Below, one piece after another: positions 8,354-37,158 of a stretch of DNA of 47,146 nucleotides. Made by a program: the position numbers and the translations under genes. Every line of letters begins with the position of its first letter. Within the stretch, counting starts at the first letter, position 1. This DNA is from Candidatus Uhrbacteria bacterium GW2011_GWC2_41_11 (lineage in GTDB: Bacteria; Patescibacteriota; Patescibacteriia; UBA9934; GWF2-40-263), in contig LCAH01000005.1 in NCBI GenBank assembly GCA_000996355.1, positions 1 through 47,146 on the forward strand, in the 5' to 3' direction. The notes beneath the pieces are model-generated. The model was given only the letters and a program-made list of their open reading frames with translations, was not told the origin of the DNA and made no database searches.

Positions 8354-8382
8354 ATAATACCAAAAAAATCATGTTTTGTCAA
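8354..8382 (-). promoter_or_regulatory. sigma70 promoter TTGACA-17-TATTAT, overlapping the uvrC stop codon
   Basis: Consensus hexamers with 17-bp spacer and TG extension. Confidence 0.75.
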
Positions 8383-9704
8383 TTTTTCTTAACAAAACTT
8401 TTTCCCCGTAATTCTCGATGATATTTGATAGCAAAACGATGGGCTTCATCACGAGCTTGTTGGAACATCTGTTTTCCTCGCTCAACAACCTGAGCTAATG
8501 CTAAATTTCTCGAATCAAAAACGAGACGATCTTGTTTGCGATCAAATCCTTTAGCCAAACCAACAAGAGGAATCTGAACATCAAATTGATTCAATACATC
8601 TTGCACTTTACCCACCTGTCCTTCCCCGCCATCAATAACCATAAGCACAGGAAGTGGCCATGTATCAGGAAACTGTTTTACTCGCGCAAGACGTCGACGC
8701 AAAACTTCTTCCATCATTGCCACATCATTTGAACCTTGAACGGTTTTAATTTTGAATTTTCGATATTCTTTTTTTGCAGGTTTTCCATCTAAAAACACAA
8801 CCATGGATCCTACCGCAGATGTGCCGGAAATATTACTAATGTCATAACACTCAATACGACCATTCAGATCAATTCCTTCTTTTTGTTCAATTTTCGCAAA
8901 AGGAAGATCAGCATCTTCTTTCATCACAAGCGCAACATCTTGAATATGTTCAAGGGCAAAAAGATTGTTGCGTAGTTTTGCTGCTTGTTCGAAACGATGA
9001 AGACGTGCTTCATGCTCCATTTCTTTTTTGATTTCTCGCATGAGTTCTGTTTTCCTTCCTTCAAAAAATAAAATGAGTTGTCGAATGATTCGATGATATT
9101 CTTTTGCCGTAATCGCTCCCGTGCATACACCTGGACATTTTTTAATATGCACATTGAAACAGGCTTTTCGTTTTCCTGTTACTTCGGGCGGCTGACAGAT
9201 ACTCCACGGAATCATTTTTCGAATGAGATCAAGCGCACGACGCAAAGCCTGAGCACTTGTATAAGGACCAAATACAGCCAAAAAATGCTTTTTTGCCACA
9301 GGAGAAAGTTTGCGTTCAAATGGATTGATATGAAGACGCTCGAGTTCAAGACCACGCATCAAAAGCGGACGCGGATACGCTTCGTTTGTGATCACAAGAT
9401 ACAAAAATGTTTTATCGTCACGTTGCAGAATATTATATTTTGGACGTTTGGCTTTAATTTGATTTGCCTCAAGCACAAGCGCTTCAATCACGGTTCCTGT
9501 TTGCACATAATCAATACGAGCAATATTTGAAACCATATCTGCAATCCGATTATCATGTGCCTTTGTAAAATACGAACCAACTCGCTTTTTGAGTGAGGTT
9601 GCTTTTCCAACATACAGAAGTTCTCCGGACATGTCGTAATAAAAATAGACACCGGGGCTGTCTGGAAGTTCTTTATTTTTTATTGTGATGTGTGAAGGGA
9701 TCAT
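8379..9704 (-). CDS. uvrC: Excinuclease ABC subunit C (short form lacking the C-terminal HhH)
   Basis: GIY-YIG (PGVY...LLYVGKA...LKKRVGSYF), UVR domain and RNase H-like domain (IECYDISN, IDGG, RDEAHRFA). Confidence 0.95.
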   Translation of the reverse strand: MIPSHITIKNKELPDSPGVYFYYDMSGELLYVGKATSLKKRVGSYFTKAHDNRIADMVSNIARIDYVQTGTVIEALVLEANQIKAKRPKYNILQRDDKTFLYLVITNEAYPRPLLMRGLELERLHINPFERKLSPVAKKHFLAVFGPYTSAQALRRALDLIRKMIPWSICQPPEVTGKRKACFNVHIKKCPGVCTGAITAKEYHRIIRQLILFFEGRKTELMREIKKEMEHEARLHRFEQAAKLRNNLFALEHIQDVALVMKEDADLPFAKIEQKEGIDLNGRIECYDISNISGTSAVGSMVVFLDGKPAKKEYRKFKIKTVQGSNDVAMMEEVLRRRLARVKQFPDTWPLPVLMVIDGGEGQVGKVQDVLNQFDVQIPLVGLAKGFDRKQDRLVFDSRNLALAQVVERGKQMFQQARDEAHRFAIKYHRELRGKSFVKKN

Positions 9705-9970: not shown

Positions 9971-10696
9971 TTACCCAAACAGCGGAGCGGGGATGTCGGT
10001 CTGGGTGCCTGTTTCGGTCGGTGTCGCGGTCGTGACCTCCTCCTCTTCCGGTTCTTCCGGTCTGGTCAGATCTTCGACCTTGTAGGTCATCCGACCTTTT
10101 TCCTGGACCACGACCAAACTGCGCCTCCAGGGGTTCTTTTTCCCTGGCTTAGCTCCGACGAAGAGGACAATCGAGTCCAGACGGCGAACCTTGCCATCTT
10201 GTCCGGTCGTCTCATTGAGATAGACCGATCCATTGTTGAATCGGTAACCCATGAGAACTTCCTGGACAGCAGAAGGCATTGCCTCCGTAACAGGTGTCTC
10301 AGCTTCAGCAACCTCCGCAACAGGTCGCCGGCTGAACACCAGCACATTGACCGGCTTGCCTTGCCAATCATAGTACCAATGTCCGTCAGTATAAACATAA
10401 CTGGCCTCGAGAATGGCCAATATTGTCGGAGCCGGGAAAAGTTTCTCTTCGCGCTTGATGATCTCCACCCCGCGTTTCTGAGACACCTTTTCACCTTCCG
10501 ACGATTCGATCTGTCGGAGACCAGGGATGCTTCCGGTCAGATAAATCTGAACCAGAATCACTTCGGGCTCGGAGTATCGGCCCAAGAGCCCCTTCTTCTT
10601 CAGAGAGGTAGCTTCCTGTTTCTGAGGTGTGGCCTGACCGCTCTGGCCAGAAAACTTCTCTTGCAGACCCTTTACAAACTGAGAAAGCTCAGTCAT
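9971..10696 (-). CDS. Hypothetical protein
   Basis: 241-aa ORF with SD GAGG, its own promoter and terminator, and an acidic Thr/Pro-rich tail. Confidence 0.75.
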   Translation of the reverse strand: MTELSQFVKGLQEKFSGQSGQATPQKQEATSLKKKGLLGRYSEPEVILVQIYLTGSIPGLRQIESSEGEKVSQKRGVEIIKREEKLFPAPTILAILEASYVYTDGHWYYDWQGKPVNVLVFSRRPVAEVAEAETPVTEAMPSAVQEVLMGYRFNNGSVYLNETTGQDGKVRRLDSIVLFVGAKPGKKNPWRRSLVVVQEKGRMTYKVEDLTRPEEPEEEEVTTATPTETGTQTDIPAPLFG

Positions 10697-10874: not shown

Positions 10875-10903
10875 AATATACCAGAAAATTAAACCTTTGT
10901 CAA
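10875..10903 (-). promoter_or_regulatory. sigma70 promoter TTGACA-17-TATATT
   Basis: Consensus hexamers with TG extension. Confidence 0.8.
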
Positions 10904-10918
10904 GAGTTTATAACAAAA

Positions 10919-12236: not shown

Positions 12237-12312
<76 letters not shown>

Positions 12313-28960: not shown

Positions 28961-29604
28961 TGCATTTTTGCTTTTTTCTCTTCATGACGTGTTTTTAACT
29001 GAGAGAGAAATATCTCATCTTCCTCCAAAAATGATTGAATCTTTTTCACACAAAATTTAGATTCTTCTGATTTTTCAAGCCAATCAAAACAATGAGTACG
29101 AACATCTGCATTTCCCCGTAAAAAATCCGTCAATTTCTTTCCATATTTTTCTTCCCATTCATCAACAAATTCCTTTGTGGGAGGTTCCGATACCCACCCA
29201 TATCTTGCAGAGACATAGGCAAATATGACTTTTTTTTCCTTAAGGAATTCTGCAATTTTTTCAACAGAATCTTGTAATTCTTCGTGCATGGCATCCAAAA
29301 ATGGCTTAAGAATTTTTCGATCAAATGTTGATTTTAATATTTCGGAAGGATTCAAGGCAAAACGATCTGCATTCTTCTGATAAAATTCACGAGCGCGGGA
29401 ACCATAATTTTCTGCCCAAATCTGCAAAACAATATTCAGATCATCCATAAAATTTGCAACAAGACGCCCTGCATCTATTGCTTGAATCTTCCCAAACACA
29501 ACAAGACGATCCGCTTCTCTTTTCTCTCCGGGTGTAAGAATCAATGGTTCTTGTTTCGCTCTAATAAAATCATCAATTCCTTCGTGAGGCATGTCATTCA
29601 TCAT
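28957..29604 (-). CDS. Hypothetical protein
   Basis: 215-aa helical ORF coupled to the PEBP gene. Confidence 0.7.
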   Translation of the reverse strand: MMNDMPHEGIDDFIRAKQEPLILTPGEKREADRLVVFGKIQAIDAGRLVANFMDDLNIVLQIWAENYGSRAREFYQKNADRFALNPSEILKSTFDRKILKPFLDAMHEELQDSVEKIAEFLKEKKVIFAYVSARYGWVSEPPTKEFVDEWEEKYGKKLTDFLRGNADVRTHCFDWLEKSEESKFCVKKIQSFLEEDEIFLSQLKTRHEEKKAKMH

Positions 29605-29744
29605 ATAAATAAAACTTTTTTCTTATTGTAATGAAAAACATATTCCTTGTCCAAAATGTCTTTTTCTCTTGACAAAAACCAAAAATGTTCTAGGATTTAA
29701 AAAGATCTTTTTTGTTCTTTTTCTTTCGACGAAAGGAGAGATAC

Positions 29745-30152
29745 ATGCACGAAGACAATTACCATCTCATCACCAGTTGGGGTGGACTAAATCGGTCTCT
29801 AAAAGAAGGTCGGCTCAGTCTAAAAGAACTGGAGGAAGCTCTCTGTTTCTTCCGGTTCCGAACCGGACTGCATGAGCTGAAAATAAATGATTCATTCGCC
29901 TTTTTCGGAGCAGAAACAGCCGAAAAAAAATATAGGGAGATTATCCGTGTTCTCTCCAATAAAAATGGAGGAATTCGTTGGAGACAAGATCCGAATCATC
30001 TCCCTACATTAACTGATCTGGATGATTTCCTGGTCGAGAACGGATTTCCCTCATTCGCGAAATTTGTCCTGGATGGGGAGGAACGATATCAATGGTTCTC
30101 AATTATGCCAACCATTGTTTCTCGAGCAGGACTTATACTCATGGTTCATTGA
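29745..30152 (+). CDS. Hypothetical protein
   Basis: SD AAGGAG, TTGACA-16-TAGGAT at 29669-29696, terminator agcgtcc/ggacgct plus T-run at about 30159-30187. Confidence 0.7.
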   Translation: MHEDNYHLITSWGGLNRSLKEGRLSLKELEEALCFFRFRTGLHELKINDSFAFFGAETAEKKYREIIRVLSNKNGGIRWRQDPNHLPTLTDLDDFLVENGFPSFAKFVLDGEERYQWFSIMPTIVSRAGLILMVH

Positions 30153-30241
30153 CCCTCTAGCGTCCATCGTCGGACGCTTTTTTTTTTCAAATCTGTTATA
30201 CTTTTTTCAAGACATGAATATTTTTTCTTCATGCATACTCT

Positions 30242-31153
30242 ATGTTTTCTGGATCCCGATTTGAGAATTCTTTCCCAGGAGGTGGTTTTCATAGCGAAAC
30301 CGAACGAATACGAAAAGAACAAGAAATACCAGGCGAGGAATACATCCCGAGCACAGAGGATGAAATGCCTCTTGAAATGAAAAAAGAAGTCACTCGCATC
30401 GGACTCAACATCATGCGCAAAGTGTTTGCAAACATTCCGGATTATGTCGTGTTTGCAAGCACAGCCATGTCTTTATATGGATTAGAAGACGCCCCTGGAG
30501 ATTTTGATGCGACGGTTTCTTCAGAACAAACACTCAATCGAGTACGTGATCATTTGGCACGTGTACCTGGCGTTCAATTCAAGCATAACGGTTCATATAT
30601 CACCTCTCCATTGGATGGAACAAAAATTTTAAAAGGAAGTATTGTGATGGAATTTCCATCAACCAAACCAGGCGATAAATCGTCAAAGTACGCTTATCCA
30701 TTTGAAATTTTCTGCAAATCCACCCTCGTCCCGACGGAAACATTTCAAAAACAACATCGTGTTGAAGGTTTTAATGTTCTTACCCAGGAAGGCTTACAAC
30801 AGCAATACGCGAACAATACAAAAATGGAAGAACGTATTCAAAAATATATCGACCCAATTATTGACTATCTCACACATTCAGAAAGAGAACACCGCATTCT
30901 TGCAGAATTAGAACGCTGGCGAGCACATCAAGATTCTTCCTTTTTCTTTAAACCAATTGTTGGGGATATTCTTGATCAATTTGAAATACTTCCTGAAGAT
31001 TTGGAAAAATTCTATCAAATCAAACAAAAAAAATACGGAAAAATCTCTTCCGCAGATGTTGCGGAAATTCTCACAGGAGGTTTGAAAATTAAATTAAAAA
31101 AACGGCGAGAAAACATTCGAAAACTTATTGATTTTCAACGATTAGAGGTGTGA
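30242..31153 (+). CDS. Hypothetical protein, possible Pol-beta-like nucleotidyltransferase fold
   Basis: YVVFASTAMSLYG...PGDFDATV resembles the hG[GS]...DhD signature. Confidence 0.55.
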   Translation: MFSGSRFENSFPGGGFHSETERIRKEQEIPGEEYIPSTEDEMPLEMKKEVTRIGLNIMRKVFANIPDYVVFASTAMSLYGLEDAPGDFDATVSSEQTLNRVRDHLARVPGVQFKHNGSYITSPLDGTKILKGSIVMEFPSTKPGDKSSKYAYPFEIFCKSTLVPTETFQKQHRVEGFNVLTQEGLQQQYANNTKMEERIQKYIDPIIDYLTHSEREHRILAELERWRAHQDSSFFFKPIVGDILDQFEILPEDLEKFYQIKQKKYGKISSADVAEILTGGLKIKLKKRRENIRKLIDFQRLEV

Positions 31154-32199
31154 ACAGTTTTTGAAAAATCTTTTTGAAGAACCCCCGCTTTGTAAAGTTC
31201 CACAAGAACCAACACGGCAGAAAGAACCGTGGGACCCACAATCAAACCAATAGAACCAAACGTTTCAATGCCGCCAAGCATGAATACAAGAAGAAGAAGA
31301 GCGTGCATATGAGTGGTTCCTTTCATAAGGTACGGAGCCAAAAGATTATCAACGAGTCCAACAACCAAAATAGACCAAAGTGTCAACCCAACAGTTGCAA
31401 CCATATCTCCTGTAAAAAAGAGATAAACGATCGCCGGAACCATTACAAGACCAACTCCAACCAATGGAACTTGTGCAGCAACGACTGCAGCCGCTCCCCA
31501 AAGAAACGAGCCTGGCACCCCGAAAAAAGACATGCCGATCGTTGCAAAAATTCCCTGTGTTACGGCAACCATAAGTGCTCCGAATACAACGGAACGCACA
31601 GTTTCCACAATACGCTGCATAATCGCCTCATCCACCGTGTCTCGAAACGGACTCAATATCAAAATTTCTCGGCGCAGTTTATTCCGATCTGCGAGAAGAT
31701 AATACAAGGCAATAAAAAAGAGGATGGTGTTTATAGCAAATTTTGTGGAACTGGAAAAAAGATCATCCACATGTCCAAAAATCCATTCAGCAACACTTTT
31801 TGCAACTGCATTCAAATCCAACGCCAGCACCCGTTCACGTAAAAAAGAAGGAAGACTTTCTAACATGGCTGCAACCTGAACACGCGAAATCCACCCTCCG
31901 TCTCCCAGAGAACTTTGTAATAATTCCGTTGCTTGTCGAACCATGAGTAAAAGAACAAAAAAGATAGGAACGGCAATTAAGAGAAAAACAGCAAAAACCA
32001 AAAGAGCTGCGGCAAGTTTTTTTCGCTTGATCAATTGTTCAAGACGTTCATGAATTGGTGCACAAACAATGGCCGCAATTCCAGCTGTCAAAAGAGTAAG
32101 AACAAATGACTGAATCGTTGTCCAAGCAAGAAAAAGCACGATGACAGAAATCAAAAGAAAAAACCATCGTTCCAAAGACATTGAATGTTCCATGCGCAT
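31135..32199 (-). CDS. AI-2E family transporter
   Basis: Multiple TMs, VPLVG, DNLLAP, FGSIGLIVGP. Confidence 0.9.
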   Translation of the reverse strand: MRMEHSMSLERWFFLLISVIVLFLAWTTIQSFVLTLLTAGIAAIVCAPIHERLEQLIKRKKLAAALLVFAVFLLIAVPIFFVLLLMVRQATELLQSSLGDGGWISRVQVAAMLESLPSFLRERVLALDLNAVAKSVAEWIFGHVDDLFSSSTKFAINTILFFIALYYLLADRNKLRREILILSPFRDTVDEAIMQRIVETVRSVVFGALMVAVTQGIFATIGMSFFGVPGSFLWGAAAVVAAQVPLVGVGLVMVPAIVYLFFTGDMVATVGLTLWSILVVGLVDNLLAPYLMKGTTHMHALLLLVFMLGGIETFGSIGLIVGPTVLSAVLVLVELYKAGVLQKDFSKTVHTSNR

Positions 32200-32298
32200 A
32201 TAAATCTATTATAGATGAAAGTTCTTTCTTTCTCCAGACAAAAAAATCTATTCCTCATTCCTAACACCCAACATATATCACCTATTTGTCACGATCTC

Positions 32299-32327
32299 TT
32301 GACAAATATTTTTATTTATGGTAAACT
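32299..32327 (+). promoter_or_regulatory. sigma70 promoter P1 TTGACA-17-TAAACT
   Basis: Consensus hexamers, TG-extended -10. Confidence 0.8.
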
Positions 32328-32377
32328 TATTTTTGTAAGGTTGAAATAAATAATAAACCAACATTTGTTACAAGCTA

Positions 32378-32406
32378 TTGACAAAAATTTTCAACCGTGG
32401 TATGCT
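32378..32406 (+). promoter_or_regulatory. sigma70 promoter P2 TTGACA-17-TATGCT
   Basis: Consensus hexamers, TG-extended -10, AT-rich upstream. Confidence 0.8.
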
Positions 32407-32412
32407 AGAAGA

Positions 32413-33435
32413 GTTATAAAATTCAAATTAGTTCCCTTTCAGCATTTTTGGAAAAAACAGTTTGAGAATCGAAACTGTTTTTTCTAAGAATCGTGAGCGG
32501 GAGCGTTGTTATTCCGAAATCTCCCCCACGGCGTTGGCTGGATCATGGCATCAAAAGGATGGCTTATCCCCTGATGTATTGTTACATCAGACCCATCCCC
32601 CAACAATAGCCACCCGGCCGCGCATCGATGGCAGATTCGGGGACTGCCTGCCAATCACTTGTTCCCCGATTTTACCACCCGCGGGCGTCCCATCCCTACC
32701 AGGCATTCATCATCAGGCAGGGACCCTCGCGAATTTTTTGAAAGCCACCCCACCACTCTATCGAAAATACAGAGTCGGAGGGGCTGGCGATAACCAAGGG
32801 TCATTTTTCAGACCCATGAGAGTCCCTTTGGACTCATGAAAGAGAGAACAGAAATGTTCCTAAGACAATTTTGTAGACGATAGGAGACTAAGAGAGGGTC
32901 TCCGTTAACAAAAAAACTCTCTGAAGAAGGTGTACCCAGGTCTACCTTTAAAACCTGGCTTAGTCGCTTGTTGGTACCAACCCCCTATCGGCGCTGCTTC
33001 GCAACCGGGGGTCTGGTCGCACCGGAAAAACAGGTGACAAAAAACCAAAAACTTCTTCGAGAATCCCTCGACACGGCCCCACAACCATCGGGCGCCTACG
33101 GGATTAAAAATCTCGGAGAAAAACCAAGAAAGGAGGGTGAGACATGGCTTATTGTCATGAATCACCATTCTACTGAACCAAGGGGAGTCGACGACACCGA
33201 CCAGGCATTTTTGCCGGAGTTGCTCGTCGTGCGCGAAAAGCCAATCGACTCCCCCCACGCGAGACATCTTTTGGGGAGTTGATACGGGCTACCGCGGGCG
33301 CCTTTCGCCTGCGTCGGAGCCTTGCTGTCGGCTCCCCTTGTCTTTTGAGGACTTGAAGAAAATGCTTCGAGAATTCAAAAGAGGAAGAGACGACTCTGAA
33401 AATCCGCCCTTAACCCGGGCGGATTTTCGTTTTTT
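32413..33435 (+). ncRNA. Candidate large (~1 kb) highly structured non-coding RNA of unrecognised class
   Basis: Bounded by promoters and a terminator, GC-rich, no credible long ORF, more than a dozen helices with G-U pairs favouring the + strand. Confidence 0.7.
33398..33435 (+). terminator. Strong intrinsic terminator
   Basis: gaaaatccgccc/gggcggattttc 12-bp stem followed by gtttttt. Confidence 0.85.
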
Positions 33436-33462
33436 CTGATTTCACGTTATGATCTTTTTGTT

Positions 33463-34167
33463 ATGAAACAAGAAATACGCCTCAATAAATTCCTTGTCAG
33501 TGTTGGTGCATGCTCCCGCCGAGAAGCAGATCGTCTGATTGAGGACGAAAGAGTGAGTGTGAATAGAACTCCAGCTCTTCTTGGACAAAAAGTCACAGGA
33601 AAAGAAATCATCACGATTGATGGAGAACCTGTTGGCAAACCACCCACAAAACGTATCTACATGGCATATCACAAACCTATTGGCATTATTTGTACAAGCG
33701 ATCCGAATGCAGAAGACAATATTATTGAAGCGATCAATTTTCCCGAACGTATTTTTCACATTGGACGACTGGACGTTGCTTCTTCTGGACTCATTCTTCT
33801 CACAAACGACGGAGATATCGTGAACCATATTTTACGTGCAGAAGAACAACATGAAAAAGAATATGTGATCCAAACAGATCGACCTCTCACAGATATTTTT
33901 CTCCATCGCATGGAAACAGGTGTGGTCATAGACGACCGCCACACCCTTCCGGCAACAGTTAAAAGACTGGGACCTGATCGTTTTACTCTGACCCTTATCG
34001 AAGGACGCAATCGTCAAATTCGCAAAATGTGCGAAGCACTTGGTTATGAAGTCAAACAACTCAAACGTATTCGTGTCATGAATATTCAACTCGGAGATCT
34101 TCCGCCCGGTCGTTGGCGATTTCTCACTCCACAAGAAGAAAAAGAATTGTTGGAAAACAAAAAATAA
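33463..34167 (+). CDS. RsuA/RluB/RluF family rRNA pseudouridine synthase with S4 domain
   Basis: RLNKFL...SRREAD, GRLD, LLTNDG, EGRNRQIRKM. Confidence 0.95.
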   Translation: MKQEIRLNKFLVSVGACSRREADRLIEDERVSVNRTPALLGQKVTGKEIITIDGEPVGKPPTKRIYMAYHKPIGIICTSDPNAEDNIIEAINFPERIFHIGRLDVASSGLILLTNDGDIVNHILRAEEQHEKEYVIQTDRPLTDIFLHRMETGVVIDDRHTLPATVKRLGPDRFTLTLIEGRNRQIRKMCEALGYEVKQLKRIRVMNIQLGDLPPGRWRFLTPQEEKELLENKK

Positions 34168-34200
34168 AAACCGTTCCTGATAGGAGGAACGGAGTTTGTT

Positions 34201-34632
34201 TCAAAGAACGTCACGATGACGCACAACGGTCATAACCTCTAGACCACTTGGTTTGGAATATATCTCATACGCAATCATGGCGTTGGCGAAAACTCCAAAC
34301 CGATCTGTACCGGTTCGTGCGGCCAGAATGTCCAACTGTTCAAGCATATCGTGTGTGAGATCGATACATAGATCCCACTCACCCTCTTCCATCCCAGGAC
34401 TCGCTTGTTGAGCCTCGGAAAAAAATGGATTTATTGGTCGACCAACGGGGAATCCTGGATCATTCGATCTTTCTTCATAAAGATTGTGAACATATTCAGC
34501 CATGACCTGACAGAGAAATTCGCTCGGATCTTTAATTCCGCTGCCGCCGCCGCTCATGAGCCGAAAGAAAAAAATTGCCTGCTCTGGATCCCTCACCTGA
34601 AAACAAAAACGAATCTCTCCTGTTCCTGACAT
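34201..34632 (-). CDS. Hypothetical protein, possible ribbon-helix-helix regulator
   Basis: SD GAGGA. CIDLTHDMLEQLDILAARTGTDRFGVFANAM fits a CopG-like pattern. Confidence 0.55.
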   Translation of the reverse strand: MSGTGEIRFCFQVRDPEQAIFFFRLMSGGGSGIKDPSEFLCQVMAEYVHNLYEERSNDPGFPVGRPINPFFSEAQQASPGMEEGEWDLCIDLTHDMLEQLDILAARTGTDRFGVFANAMIAYEIYSKPSGLEVMTVVRHRDVL

Positions 34633-34711
34633 GGGAGTCCTCCTCTGTCAGACGTTTGTGGTTTATCACATATTGTATAAGGACTTCTTTTGTTATACCT
34701 TTTTTGAAATT

Positions 34712-36646
34712 TTAGTCAATGCCACCTGTTTCTTCTTGAAAAAATGGCACAGACGGAAGTGTTGTTAACTTTGATAATATATCTCGTTCTCGATTCAGGG
34801 TTGCATCACCTATTTCTTGTGCTTCTTGTTCAAAATAATTTTTAAAACGGATAAATATCTGGTCATAAGGAGAAGAAACCTGCAAAGGAAGAGATGTTTG
34901 TTCCCAAGACGATGTTGTTTCATTTTTTTCTCTTTCATCGGCAATCCATTGTCGAATCAATTCCCCATATCGCACTAAAAGAACACCTTTACGTACTCCA
35001 TTATCATCGGACATATCTGCTTGAAGACCATCAAATGAGATATCTCCCGTGCGTGACCATGTACGACCATCACGATCCTCATAATTCACCCGCAATGACA
35101 AATGCGGATCTCCTCCTGTTTTTCGCACTTTCAAAAGAATGATTCCTCCGCGTGTTTGTCCATCTTTTGTTGCGGAAGGAAAAAGCGTTCCGATGCGCAT
35201 GATATTTCCTGTAGATTTATTCGCTTCCGGAGAACCATACACCTGCTCAATTTCAAACCCATTTGATTCAGTCGTCATTTCCAAATTAAACACCAAAGGA
35301 GATACCATATAATCGAATCCTTCATCTAGACGTTCTTGTAATTCACTTTGTGTATGCGTGGAAAAATAATTTGCTCCACGTATTTTTGTTATTGCCTCAA
35401 CCAATGCACTCTGGAAATCAACACCTATGCCGATACATGTAGTATAGACCTTGTGTTGTGCATTTTTTTCTAATCGGCTTACGAGTCCATCTTTACTTAT
35501 ATCTCCAGTATTAGGCATGGCATCTGTCAAAATAATCATGCGATTCTCATACGTATAATCTTTTTCATCACTTACTTCCATAAATAATGTCTCTGCCGAA
35601 TCCAATCCTGCAGAAAAATCCGTCCCTCCATCCGCGGACAAAGATAACAAATGTGTTTTTATTTGTTCCATTTCTGTTTCTTTCACAAGACGAAGCGGTT
35701 TGGCTATAGACGCATGATCATTGAATAAAACGATTCCTAATCGATCATCCGGTTGTAGGTGATCTAAAAGACTTGATACGGACGCAAGAGCGGTTTGTAT
35801 TTTTGTTTTTTTTGCTTCCTGTTCTTTTTGTCTATTTTGATCGTAATAATAGGTATCAAAAGAAGATGACATCGAGCCTGAAATATCCAAAACAATAACA
35901 AGATTCAATTTTTTACGCGCAAAATCGCTTTGCTTCATTCCTGAATTCAATCCAACAGCCACATACATTTCTTCTTCACCTGTCAACGGATTTTTTGTCA
36001 CTGCCCGACGATAGGATGGACAAAAAAGTATGTCACACGTTTCCTTTTTTCCTGTTTCAAAAAAATAATCTCCAAACAACCCTTCGTACGTTAAACTTGA
36101 AAGCAATGGTAAAAATCCGTTTTCAATATTGGTGCGAAATGATCCAATATCTTTGGCTCCACCAACGGAAAATCCAAGAGATTCATCAGATGAAACAGAC
36201 ATCGATAATCCGGCACTACTCCCAAACGATTCACTTTGCACAAGACCACCAAACAAATCCCAACCAGCATCTCCCATTCCGAGACCTGCACTCGACCCAC
36301 TTCCAGACATTCCAGAAATAAATGCACCAGATGTCTTATCTACTTCAGAAGAAGACCTATATTGCCAATCATCTATTTTTTTAGGTGCTATAAAAGAAAG
36401 AAGAGAACGGCGAGGATGTTGATAAGACATCTGAACACTCACAACCATAAGAACAAGAACTGCGAATACACATACGGGCCACAGGCGTTTCCATCGCTGC
36501 AAAAATTGGATCATCAGAGACAGGGAAAAATGTTTAGATGTTTTCGAAAAACCTAATCGTGCTGCCACCATTTGTTCCAATGGAACGTTCACAGAGATTT
36601 GTTCTATTTCTTTCTGATACATTTTCGAAAAAATATTTTTCAACAT
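34712..36646 (-). CDS. Membrane-anchored von Willebrand factor A domain protein (YfbK-like)
   Basis: TM near the N-terminus, MIDAS DISGS, GGT, LTD. Start reset to ATG 36646, overlapping the sigma stop. Confidence 0.88.
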   Translation of the reverse strand: MLKNIFSKMYQKEIEQISVNVPLEQMVAARLGFSKTSKHFSLSLMIQFLQRWKRLWPVCVFAVLVLMVVSVQMSYQHPRRSLLSFIAPKKIDDWQYRSSSEVDKTSGAFISGMSGSGSSAGLGMGDAGWDLFGGLVQSESFGSSAGLSMSVSSDESLGFSVGGAKDIGSFRTNIENGFLPLLSSLTYEGLFGDYFFETGKKETCDILFCPSYRRAVTKNPLTGEEEMYVAVGLNSGMKQSDFARKKLNLVIVLDISGSMSSSFDTYYYDQNRQKEQEAKKTKIQTALASVSSLLDHLQPDDRLGIVLFNDHASIAKPLRLVKETEMEQIKTHLLSLSADGGTDFSAGLDSAETLFMEVSDEKDYTYENRMIILTDAMPNTGDISKDGLVSRLEKNAQHKVYTTCIGIGVDFQSALVEAITKIRGANYFSTHTQSELQERLDEGFDYMVSPLVFNLEMTTESNGFEIEQVYGSPEANKSTGNIMRIGTLFPSATKDGQTRGGIILLKVRKTGGDPHLSLRVNYEDRDGRTWSRTGDISFDGLQADMSDDNGVRKGVLLVRYGELIRQWIADEREKNETTSSWEQTSLPLQVSSPYDQIFIRFKNYFEQEAQEIGDATLNRERDILSKLTTLPSVPFFQEETGGID

Positions 36647-37158
36647 AAAATATCTTCCCCATTTTTTTCTTCTAAACGTAGCCTTCGATGAAGTCGAGAA
36701 AACCACTGACGAACAGCGGATACTTCTTTTCCAAGGATATATGCAAGTTCCTCATACGTCATTTCATCCTCATACCGCATGGCAAGAAGAGCTTTTTCTT
36801 CACCTGTAAGACGTTCAAGAATTCGTTCAATAGCCATTTTATGATCAAGATGTTCGTGAAATAAATCATCTATCTCTGAATAAGAATTCGCTCCCCGTTC
36901 CTCAAATGAAATAGACATTTTTTTCGTACGCCAATACATCAACAAACGATATCGCACTATTCCACACATCCACTGCCGAAGTGTTCCTAAATGTTCATCG
37001 TATTCCTCGATCTTTGCGTATCCTTGCACACACACATCTGCCACAATATCCTCCGCTTCCTGACGATCAGAAACGCGATACCGCACATATCGATACAGAA
37101 ATTCAAATAAAACATGGTATTCGCGGGCAAAGAGGTCGCGTTTTTCAAAAACATCCAT
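36640..37158 (-). CDS. ECF sigma factor
   Basis: AEDIVAD, LRQWMCGI, MTYEELAYIL...AVRQWFSR. Confidence 0.9.
   Translation of the reverse strand: MDVFEKRDLFAREYHVLFEFLYRYVRYRVSDRQEAEDIVADVCVQGYAKIEEYDEHLGTLRQWMCGIVRYRLLMYWRTKKMSISFEERGANSYSEIDDLFHEHLDHKMAIERILERLTGEEKALLAMRYEDEMTYEELAYILGKEVSAVRQWFSRLHRRLRLEEKNGEDILC

Follow-up and report, generated by a model that had tools for sequence, protein, structure and literature searches.

A GC-rich gene-free gap in a Candidatus Uhrbacteria genome as a plausible species-restricted gene for a large non-coding RNA

The 1.07-Mb genome of Candidatus Uhrbacteria bacterium GW2011_GWC2_41_11 has a gene-free gap of 1.26 kb at positions 32200-33462 of the window, i.e. 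of the whole stretch of 47,146 nucleotides from contig LCAH01000005.1 that was analysed. We propose, with a confidence slightly short of even, that this gap is a separate transcription unit for a plausible species-restricted large non-coding RNA (ncRNA) gene. The proposal is based on the outcome of the coding tests, on the expression signals that bracket the gap, on its composition and on its predicted structure, and further on contigs that bridge the locus and on a body free of single-nucleotide polymorphisms (SNPs) in one strain. It is weakened by the lack of any homologue in the collections searched, by folding z-scores that are unspecific, by SNPs that break predicted pairs and by a SNP density in the body not significantly different from that of the coding flanks. 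The transcription, strand, ends and fold of the candidate RNA, as we infer them, would be the following. RNA polymerase would start at two tandem housekeeping-type promoters, near 32335 and 32413, and stop at an intrinsic terminator at about 33430-33435, which would yield a primary transcript of ~1.02-1.10 kb. An AU-rich 5' hairpin would precede the GC-rich body (32505-33394), whose two ends are predicted to pair – like the processing stalks of rRNA precursors – and which would fold into ~20 mostly local hairpins with A-rich linkers between them. Most likely, such an RNA would be stable and act in trans, as a scaffold or binding platform for one or more proteins.

Locus, composition and expression signals

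The gap is flanked by the genes of an AI-2E transporter and of a pseudouridine synthase (PsiS gene; Table 1). Open reading frames (ORFs) within it reach at most 125 aa from start to stop and at most 135 aa from stop to stop, and nowhere else does the window have so long a stretch free of ORFs of at least 130 aa. Among the 137 ORF-free gaps of the genome it ranks eighth in length and also eighth in GC; only two rRNA gaps exceed it in GC among those of at least 1 kb. The GC content is 0.27 at 32200-32499 and 0.52 at 32490-33400, compared with 0.414 for the genome, a median of 0.388 for the ORF-free gaps and 0.49-0.50 for the rRNA of the same genome. CCCC runs are enriched in the candidate RNA (14 observed vs 5.1 expected, P about 0.006), and the frequency of GGA, counted by eye only, is about as expected.

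Both promoters fit the genome's own strict pattern, TTGACA-N14-TGNTANNNT, which occurs at 35 sites on the two strands of the 1.07 Mb; P1 and P2 account for two of the 35. They lie 79 nt apart in a duplicated 40-nt module (direct repeat, 75% identity), and a TTTGTCA element upstream of P1 is also found at many of the strict sites. A loose promoter scan stayed at about chance level (6 sites vs 5.8 expected). The GC-rich body follows immediately on the promoters and leader and extends just to the terminator, and by sequence match the candidate ncRNA gene has a promoter and a terminator of its own on one strand. An earlier note on this DNA had described the gap as the largest gene-free one, with two tandem promoters, a strong terminator and a sequence richer in GC than its flanks (body 52%, genome 41.4%), and all four descriptions hold. 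Its further suggestion, that tandem promoters are a mark of stable RNAs, does not hold in this genome, as two are also found at a GC-rich gene for a small protein on contig C12.

A weaker terminator-like hairpin is seen at 33316-33335. The PsiS gene starts 28 nt past the T run of the terminator and has neither a strict promoter match nor a Shine-Dalgarno sequence of its own; a -10-like TATGAT stands just before it, at 33448-33453. Contigs from independent DNA runs bridge both junctions of the gap, those of run X6 with 32169-32641 and 33137-33699 and those of run X5 in overlapping pieces, and the word depth of the gap in the two runs is about that of the flanks. The locus is genuine, and it is not a multi-copy sequence.

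Table 1. Features of the gap and of its two neighbours, in positions of the window; folds are predicted.
Feature	Position	Strand	Basis
AI-2E family transporter gene, divergent upstream neighbour	31135-32199	-	PF01594 (AI-2E_transport), E 1.1e-45
Promoter module copy 1, P1: TTGACA-17-TAAACT (32299-32327), -35 at 32299-32304, TG-extended -10 ending 32327	32284-32327	+	strict genome pattern
Promoter module copy 2, P2: TTGACA-17-TATGCT (32378-32406), -35 at 32378-32383, TG-extended -10 ending 32406	32363-32406	+	strict pattern, direct repeat
AU-rich 5' hairpin: helices of 6, 4 and 20 bp, A-run/U-run core	32431-32504	+	pair probabilities 0.97-1.0
End-to-end closing stem, 5' arm (partner 33383-33394)	32505-32515	+	prediction only
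GC-rich 5' domain: nested helices 32531-32623, hairpins 32637-32669 and 32680-32731	32531-32731	+	probabilities 0.81-1.0
Row of short hairpins 32744-88, 32798-815, 32820-35, 32883-903, 32926-49, with A-rich linkers	32744-32949	+	most probabilities 0.98-1.0
Two long hairpins 32963-33038 and 33053-33120; most strain-variable stretch	32963-33120	+	probabilities 0.90-0.97
Shine-Dalgarno-like AAGGAGG, then 10-codon ORF (ATG 33144, stop 33174-33176)	33131-33176	+	sequence reading
3' domain: four mutually complementary 10-15-nt segments, two alternative folds	33179-33340	+	predicted pairing
Hairpin (9 + 7 bp), 5' arm repeating a motif of the two preceding modules	33341-33382	+	probabilities 0.98-1.0
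End-to-end closing stem, 3' arm	33383-33394	+	prediction only
Intrinsic terminator: 13-bp stem (33397-33429), 7 G-C pairs, 7-nt loop, T run	33397-33435	+	pair probability 0.96
RsuA/RluB-like pseudouridine synthase with S4 domain (PsiS gene), downstream neighbour	33463-34167	+	PF00849 (PseudoU_synth_2), E 1.3e-18; PF01479, E 2.9e-08

Coding potential and known RNA families

The gap is non-coding by every test that was run, i.e. period-3, Pfam, phmmer, tblastx and strain deletions. Its period-3 signal-to-noise ratio is 0.95 (0.67 and 0.95 in the halves), compared with 3.6-16.5 in all of seven window genes used for comparison. The genome has 39 other GC-rich islands, of which only the two rRNA stretches have values below 2 (1.4 and 1.7). 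The 37 non-rRNA islands, all with at least 2.6, were rejected as sister RNAs; the two that were inspected, on contigs C12 and C14, carry Ala/Arg/Glu-rich ORFs without Pfam matches. None of seven stop-to-stop frames of the gap matches Pfam at E up to 10, and three of its ORFs likewise gave no Pfam match. For one frame, the 132-aa one that is the longest on the + strand of the 3' half, phmmer returned three matches among 1.84 billion representatives: the same ORF of the same organism, and two tandem-repeat proteins that BLASTP did not confirm (E 0.15). With tblastx, the single non-self match in the organism's own genome is not significant (E 0.074). On the results from Pfam, from phmmer with this one 132-aa frame and from tblastx, a pseudogene of a recognisable protein was rejected; for the other two long frames the argument is the period-3 signal and the strain deletions. 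A helix-turn-helix likeness near 32910-32960 is without Pfam support.

According to the 4227 covariance models of Rfam 15, none of which reaches its gathering threshold in the gap, the only match of the window at gathering score is a tRNA at 12237-12309, 20 kb away. When E is relaxed to 10, the rnk leader comes first with 39.2 bits (gathering score 55), a match that covers the terminator hairpin only and is a terminator likeness; further matches are chance-level microRNA and sRNA models. In agreement with the earlier claim that hallmarks of known RNAs are missing, cmscan gives no match to rRNA, RNase P, tmRNA, SRP or group I/II introns. The genome has its RNase P RNA (C22:13066-13530, 122.6 bits) and its tmRNA (C2:115416-115815, 126.3 bits) elsewhere. 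An SRP RNA was found by the small and large bacterial models neither in the gap nor genome-wide, and the genome likewise lacks the SRP_SPB and SRP54 domains of the SRP RNA partner Ffh.

GOLLD, ROOL and OLE are large bacterial structured ncRNAs whose function is unknown or has only recently been glimpsed; together with HEARO and raiA, we take them to be among the Rfam 15 families tested. The candidate resembles them in its size class (0.6-1 kb), its many helices and a GC content above that of an AT-rich genome, and also in being, as predicted here, a unit that stands by itself between a promoter and a terminator of its own. It differs from them in that it matches no Rfam 15 model even at E up to 10, in that many covarying members define those classes and no relative of the candidate was found in the collections searched, and in that the window offers no phage or tRNA neighbourhood, its sole tRNA being 20 kb off.

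Homologue searches, predicted fold and strain variants

BLAST of the body or of the whole unit revealed no homologue in 61 genomes of relatives, 73 of the family, 162 of the order, 401 of the class and 401 of the phylum, sets that overlap and each include the organism's own genome; only isolated matches of 25-36 nt were obtained, none of which extended on re-examination. Equally without a match was nhmmer against 119 loci, 80 of them metagenome loci around PsiS relatives. Single-sequence covariance models were built for two parts of the candidate RNA on either side of its middle. Model R1 (5' domain, 32531-32680) retrieved only itself from 151 genomes, searched with Infernal's stricter filters, and model R2 (3' domain, 33176-33340) only itself from 40 genomes. 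Phage and plasmid searches and scans with exact and degenerate patterns detected no relative of the gap sequence. The one further genome of the genus, G001 (89% complete), is without the unit and does not keep the synteny, and an ORF starts 5 nt upstream of its PsiS orthologue. The PsiS gene is present in 23 of 31 genomes; it is all that the locus has in common with the four closest loci, and neither at the loci of PsiS relatives nor at the 80 metagenome loci does the upstream sequence resemble the gap. Homologues, which the earlier note had named as a check, were found neither by BLAST nor by nhmmer nor in the related genomes, and as a consequence neither conservation nor covariation supports the predicted fold.

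The candidate RNA is called structured here in the thermodynamically predicted sense only. A pair probability of at least 0.9 is predicted for 25 of 41 helices of at least 4 bp, including the end-to-end stem (32505-10/33389-94, 0.95; 32512-15/33383-86, 0.91). The complementary segments of the 3' domain are 33179-93, 33244-54, 33273-83 and 33326-40. As for the helices proposed in the earlier note, all eight that it located by position are fully complementary, and five of them reach a mean probability of at least 0.93. The other three (32923-29/33052-58, 33182-91/33245-54 and 33273-84/33326-37) stay at 0.19 or below, because alternative pairings compete with them in the ensemble. Its argument from an excess of G-U pairs on the + strand fails: they make up 22 of 273 pairs in the + fold and 31 of 283 in the - fold.

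The minimum free energy z-score of 32505-33395 is -8.1 on the + strand and -3.9 on the - strand. This strand bias is found only in the 3' half (-7.2 vs -2.6), the 5' half being without it (-3.0 vs -3.2). Averaged over 150-nt windows, z is -2.61 in the candidate; 23S rRNA has -2.35, RNase P RNA -2.13 and a set of 44 random windows -0.79. GC-rich protein-coding islands of the same genome obtain -9.3, -5.2 and -5.8, with a fourth at +0.3. When local-composition (block) shuffles are used, the gap obtains -6.7 (+) and -5.2 (-), a small difference between the strands, two coding islands -7.0 and -6.2, and 23S rRNA -4.4. In the z-score check that had been proposed, values are thus strongly negative on both strands, but GC-rich coding genes score similarly, and in this genome RNA genes cannot be told from GC-rich protein genes by their folding z-scores.

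In the strain of run X6, all six SNPs lie in 32354-32496, a stretch of 143 nt with promoter and leader, whereas the body has none over the 739 bases covered (Fisher P 1.7e-5). Compared with the coding flanks, the SNP density of the body shows no significant difference (P 0.06). Within the 5' hairpin 32431-32504, the SNP at 32478 breaks a pair and that at 32496 turns A-U into G-U. Five strain SNPs fall on predicted pairs; three of them disrupt the pairing and two give G-U, and no compensatory change is seen among the five. One strain carries eight deletions: a loss of 4 nt at 32644, which removes one copy of a CTGC duplet, and losses of 1, 1, 1, 2, 1, 1 and 4 nt from 33017 to 33109. The latter, together with three SNPs, are seen in one contig of run X11 over 33001-33109. 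None of these deletions is a multiple of three, and the frame shifts cut ORFs of 125, 120 and 104 aa. One X6 contig skips 32861-32969 (109 nt), a weak case with a shorter side of 33 nt. A 5-nt loss at 33412 in X6 was set aside; the contig has a different depth, diverges after 33432 and may come from another organism.

The abundance suggested in the earlier note finds no support, as no sequencing run in which this DNA occurs is on record as RNA. Run X7, from the same sample as X8, is labelled METATRANSCRIPTOMIC yet rated 'probably DNA'; its contigs, all from one study, cover 32538-32931 and 32941-33313 and do not allow strand or ends to be read. Over 29000-37000 it has just two records, both inside the gap, and the absent cover of the flanks is no evidence.

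Alternative readings and implications

The main rival of the ncRNA reading is that the gap is non-functional GC-rich DNA – a horizontally acquired remnant or a long-dead gene – placed between the promoter pair and the terminator by chance or history, whether or not it is transcribed. We consider this somewhat unlikely. It agrees with the orphan status of the sequence in every collection searched, with the 39 other islands, given which GC-rich DNA is not unusual in this genome, and with coding islands that match the gap in z-score. The central part, indel-rich in one strain and shortened by 109 nt in one contig, and the pairing broken by three of five SNPs point the same way. A dead gene, however, would have to be old, since neither half has a residual period-3 signal and no frame tested has a protein relative. 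Neutral DNA of great age would be expected to have approached the other gaps, at 0.39 GC, given the AT-rich spacers of this genome. Two further observations speak against DNA without function: the limits of the GC-rich body coincide with the promoters and leader on one side and with the terminator on the other, and the X6 SNPs spare the body and not the leader.

What is quite improbable is that the unit acts in cis as a very long leader of the PsiS gene, which would be reached by read-through from P1 and P2 when the terminator or the hairpin at 33316-33335 is bypassed. The 3' domain with its alternative pairings would then act as the switch, which the enzyme's own S4 RNA-binding domain might control. 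The short distance from the terminator to the start codon, the missing strict promoter and Shine-Dalgarno sequence of the gene, the two mutually exclusive pairings of the four segments in 33179-33340 and the S4 domain itself argue for such a leader. Yet known cis-acting leaders are several-fold shorter than this unit, and two consensus promoters would be odd for an rRNA-modifying enzyme; the TATGAT could yield a leaderless mRNA. In G001, the ORF just upstream of the orthologue precludes a long leader, and the 119 loci, those of PsiS relatives included, have no homologous upstream sequence. Attenuating leaders alternate between 1:2/3:4 and 2:3 pairing before a terminator. In common with them, the gap has four segments able to pair with one another, closely preceded by a short ORF that has a Shine-Dalgarno sequence, and its terminator stands 28 nt ahead of the gene. 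The gap differs in its length of ~1 kb, in a short ORF without a run of regulatory codons, in two more hairpins between segments and gene, and in pairings that are the automatic result of a duplicated hairpin module; a conserved association of leader and PsiS gene is seen neither in the 23 of 31 genomes that have the gene nor at the 80 metagenome loci.

That the gap encodes small proteins, e.g. by the 10-codon ORF at 33144-33176 or a 33-codon ORF at 33338-33439, is very improbable in spite of ORFs of 30-125 aa in several frames and an AAGGAGG 7 nt ahead of ATG 33144, given the lack of a period-3 signal and of any family or relative, the frame-shifting strain deletions and the burial of this ATG in a hairpin (33136-33166, pair probability 1.0); the motif and ORF are probably chance, a GGAGG followed by ATG being expected in 1 kb with an estimated probability of about 0.1.

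Returning to the ncRNA reading, the unit resembles an rRNA operon in its two tandem strong promoters, in a GC content above the genome mean and in the predicted stem that joins the ends of the body. It differs in lacking any rRNA similarity and in a stalk of just 10 bp that is predicted and not conserved, and promoters in tandem also drive the small protein gene on C12. In AT-rich genomes, long intergenic regions of high GC serve as a criterion in the search for ncRNAs. The gap agrees with this criterion as an outlier in length and GC among the ORF-free gaps of its genome; candidates from such searches were confirmed by covariation of homologues, whereas no homologue of the gap was found. Searches of GC-rich intergenic regions for ncRNAs are the subject of three papers (PMC6429828, PMC8632094, PMC11109978).

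The portions of the literature available to us describe no large ncRNA from ultra-small, host-dependent groundwater bacteria, and offer nothing relevant on SRP in them either. Few bacterial RNAs of more than 500 nt are, to our knowledge, known besides rRNA. Should the gap be junk, it would mean that a GC-rich, promoter-flanked and strongly folding gap is insufficient to call an RNA gene. If the RNA is real, 1 kb of it in a tightly packed genome of 1.07 Mb would be a costly feature and therefore probably an important one, and its occurrence in a single species would be relevant to the origin of large structured RNAs. A bolder version, which we think unlikely, is a new class of giant bacterial ncRNA confined, within the present sampling, to one species: an abundant RNA with rRNA-style tandem promoters, trimmed at the stalk to a body of ~0.8-0.9 kb, whose duplicated hairpin modules would recruit protein. 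If this were true, a large structured RNA would here be of recent rather than ancient origin.

Promoters, composition and setting of the gap

We tentatively read the gene-free gap at 32200-33462 as a free-standing non-coding RNA gene, whose transcription, strand, ends, fold and function we infer, because the gap is non-coding, is exactly bracketed by the genome's own strong signals, keeps its GC amid AT-rich spacers, and has stable predicted helices. The window is contig C5 of a genome of 1,066,372 bases in 27 contigs (99.4% complete, GC 0.414), whose small size and bacterial tmRNA and RNase P RNA would fit an ultra-small bacterium. At least five studies have runs that carry the stretch, with groundwater and soil metagenome labels. 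Both gap junctions are spanned by contigs from DNA runs, and word depth is even over the gap and its flanks; hence, the locus is not chimeric and does not occur in several copies.

A scan recovered the two tandem promoters (P1, P2) and the closing terminator described in the earlier note. Sites of a loose promoter pattern are no commoner than expected from shuffles (6 vs 5.8). The promoter consensus of the genome is sharp, often TTTGTYA-N7-TTGACAAA-N12-TGNTANNNT; TTTGTYA, which sits about 7 nt 5' of the -35 element in many sites, forms an imperfect palindrome together with TTGACAAA. P1 and P2 are two of the 35 matches to the strict core TTGACA-N14-TGNTANNNT in the 1.07 Mb genome, and they lie inside a duplicated 40-nt module (75% identity, spacing 79 nt). 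Tandem strict promoters do not mark RNA genes alone: on contig C12, such a pair precedes a GC-rich 132-aa ORF, whose Ala/Arg/Glu-rich product looks like a genuine protein.

Features of the gap, its neighbours and genome-consensus promoters of the window
Feature	Position	Strand	Remark
AI-2E family transporter gene	31135-32199	-	left neighbour of gap
P1, TTGACA-17-TAAACT	32299-32327	+	upstream TG; promoter scan
P2, TTGACA-17-TATGCT	32378-32406	+	upstream TG; promoter scan
AU-rich 5' hairpin, 30 bp	32431-32504	+	MFE fold
10-bp end-to-end stem	32505-32515 / 33383-33394	+	predicted, probability 0.91-0.95; encloses entire GC-rich body
Local hairpins, about 20, then terminator	between stem arms, 3' end	+	MFE fold
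Terminator, 13-bp stem then T run	33397-33429	+	scan
Pseudouridine synthase gene with S4 domain	33463-34167	+	right neighbour of gap
Genome-consensus promoter, example	8354-8396	-	
Genome-consensus promoter, example	10875-10917	-	
Genome-consensus promoter, example	32285-32327	+	
Genome-consensus promoter, example	32364-32406	+	

The body is indeed richer in GC than its flanks, as had been claimed (0.52 over 32490-33400 vs 0.27 in the promoter zone). The genome has 137 gaps of at least 300 nt that lack a 130-aa ORF, and the present gap ranks eighth among them by GC and eighth by length; of those of at least 1 kb, only two rRNA gaps exceed it in GC. The genome contains 39 further GC-rich islands (about 500 nt or more), several of them behind strict promoters; all have a period-3 signal of at least 2.6 and long ORFs, except the two rRNA stretches (1.4 and 1.7). 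The islands C12:7387-8003 (L134 1880-2510) and C14:22397-23711 (L139 900-2210) have a GC of 0.58-0.59 vs 0.41 in the genome and are preceded by strict promoters, which on C12 form a tandem pair. Their Ala/Arg/Glu-rich ORFs (113-256 aa) have no Pfam match, and the presence of two protein-like frames side by side points to a frameshift or to a pair of genes. Elsewhere in the window, a GC-rich 241-aa ORF (9971-10696, minus strand) behind a strict promoter (10875-10903, minus strand) matches the pilin PilJ C-terminal domain weakly (E 0.0021, below cut-off); a pilin-like protein with high expression may be encoded here.

Relatives and strain variants

The earlier note had proposed a collection of homologs, but no relative of the unit was found in any set searched by BLAST, nhmmer, covariance models or patterns, phage and plasmid sets included. 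BLAST with the unit or its body yielded only isolated matches of 25-36 nt, at scattered positions and without extension, in 61 relatives and in 73 family, 162 order, 401 class and 401 phylum genomes (each count takes in the own genome). With nhmmer, nothing was found in 80 metagenome loci of the synthase or in the remaining loci searched. Single-sequence covariance models of 32531-32680 (151 genomes) and 33176-33340 (40 genomes) returned self-matches only; a phage collection, a plasmid collection and three pattern scans were blank for the unit. The sole other genome of the genus, G001 (89% complete), encodes a synthase with 66% protein identity and no neighbours in common. Around this gene (L039, G001:C18:7000-17000), GC is about 0.6 vs 0.41 in the present genome; so wide a compositional difference is unusual for members of one genus. 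In the metagenome collection, the nearest relative of the synthase has an identity of 54%.

In the strain of sequencing run X6, all six SNPs of the unit fall within 32354-32496 and none in 739 covered body bases (Fisher P 1.7e-5); between the body and the coding flanks, the SNP difference is not significant (P 0.06; expected-zero probability 0.17 when one SNP-dense record is left out). The centre of the unit (32861-32969, 33001-33109) differs between strains: one contig omits the 109 nt of the former segment, and one contig of run X11 is far more divergent over the latter, with 3 SNPs as well as eight short deletions in a span of 110 nt. The parts flanking this variable centre are 99-100% identical. 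None of the runs found to carry the stretch is on record as RNA; a small run labelled METATRANSCRIPTOMIC, rated 'probably DNA', has two contigs on the 8-kb stretch (32538-32931 and 32941-33313). Orphan status and a variable centre would fit non-functional GC-rich DNA, which we consider unlikely.

Predicted fold and folding energy

All eight helices that the earlier note located by coordinates are perfectly complementary; the ensemble probability of three is only 0.05-0.19, because pairings compete. For 32413-33435, the MFE fold has an energy of -399 kcal/mol and contains 41 helices of at least 4 bp, 25 of them with a probability of at least 0.9. Of the strain SNPs placed on this fold, two are at unpaired sites, three disrupt a predicted pair and two change Watson-Crick to G-U; strain deletions affect paired and unpaired sites alike. 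The 3' domain comprises three hairpin modules with alike 5' arms (GGGGAGTCGA, GGGGAGTTGA, GAGGACTTGA) and four segments with two alternative pairings. Such pairings, and a terminator 28 nt ahead of a gene that itself lacks signals, would also suit a leader of great length for the synthase gene, a reading we hold to be quite improbable.

Against dinucleotide shuffles, 32505-33395 has a z of -8.1 on the plus and -3.9 on the minus strand (3' half -7.2 vs -2.6; 5' half -3.0 vs -3.2); the strand bias is thus modest and limited to the 3' half. Mean z of 150-nt windows is -2.61 on the plus and -1.43 on the minus strand of the gap, -2.35 for 23S rRNA, -2.13 for RNase P RNA, -0.58 for 16S rRNA and -0.79 (sd 1.41) for 44 random windows. 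GC-rich coding islands of equal length reach -9.3 (C14), -5.2 (C17), -5.8 (C6) and +0.3 (C19), and the AI-2E gene +1.3. With shuffles within 50-nt blocks, the values are -6.7 (plus) and -5.2 (minus) for the gap, -7.0 for C14, -6.2 for C6 and -4.4 for 23S rRNA. The C14 island folds, by z-score, as strongly as rRNA on both strands. Hence, the sequence folds much more stably than its shuffles, but coding islands score alike, so that in this genome folding z cannot tell RNA genes from protein genes rich in GC. The supposed excess of G-U pairs on the plus strand disappears on counting (22 of 273 pairs vs 31 of 283 in the minus fold).

Coding potential, known RNA families and comparable systems

In period-3 signal-to-noise, the gap scores 0.95 (0.67 and 0.95 for its halves) vs 3.6-16.5 in seven window genes. 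None of its ORFs exceeds 125 aa when a start codon is required, or 135 aa stop-to-stop. Pfam was not matched by any of seven stop-to-stop frames at E up to 10, and tblastx against the own genome gave no significant match. The 132-aa plus-strand frame 32884-33282, searched by phmmer against 1.84 billion representatives, matched an 82-aa ORF from this very organism (99% identity) as well as two proteins with tandem repeats; the latter were rejected as relatives, since their summed weak scores fail pairwise (best BLASTP E 0.15). Frame-breaking strain deletions on contigs from other runs (4 nt at 32644; 1, 1, 1, 2, 1, 1 and 4 nt within 33017-33109) cut every long ORF. We conclude that the gap encodes no protein at present and shows no remains of an earlier gene that could be recognised. 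Small peptides, to which short ORFs and one Shine-Dalgarno-like site might point, are highly improbable. An AAGGAGG lies 7 nt 5' of the ATG opening a 10-codon ORF (33131-33176, plus strand), with the start codon within a predicted hairpin (probability 1.0).

In agreement with the earlier view that hallmarks of several known RNA classes are missing, covariance-model search of the gap with Rfam 15 found no family at gathering score; at E up to 10, the best match is to a leader model and covers the terminator hairpin alone (39.2 bits vs a gathering score of 55). RNase P RNA and tmRNA are encoded on other contigs; 6S RNA (RF00013) has no match in the genome, which says little, as the model matched only 5 of 14 control genomes. 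The signal recognition particle (SRP) pathway was not found in this genome or its relatives. Neither small nor large SRP RNA matched; the Ffh M domain (PF02978) and the SRP54-type GTPase domain (PF00448) are absent from the genome's matches, and the FtsY model TIGR00064 reaches at best 18.4 bits (cut-off 260.7). SecY was recovered at 343 bits, so the profile search works on this genome. None of its ORFs carries the motifs typical of SRP GTPases; DTAGR occurs in a single ORF, which by sequence looks like a UvrD-type helicase. RF00169 is found in 0 of 31 genomes of relatives, and PF00448 above cut-off in 0 of 26 of the order; the 81-genome class sample yielded only partial P-loop matches (at most 29.4 bits), and the 101-genome phylum sample none at E up to 1e-10. 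A literature text search found no paper on a missing SRP in these bacteria. The absence is either a lineage-wide loss or a systematic search miss.

With rRNA operons the unit has tandem promoters and the predicted end-to-end stem in common, but no rRNA similarity. GOLLD, ROOL and OLE are large orphan non-coding RNAs; the unit, run against their models, belongs to none. If the gap is a free-standing RNA gene, its product would act as a stable trans-acting scaffold RNA, and the likeness to GOLLD, ROOL and OLE would lie in its way of working, if it works at all.
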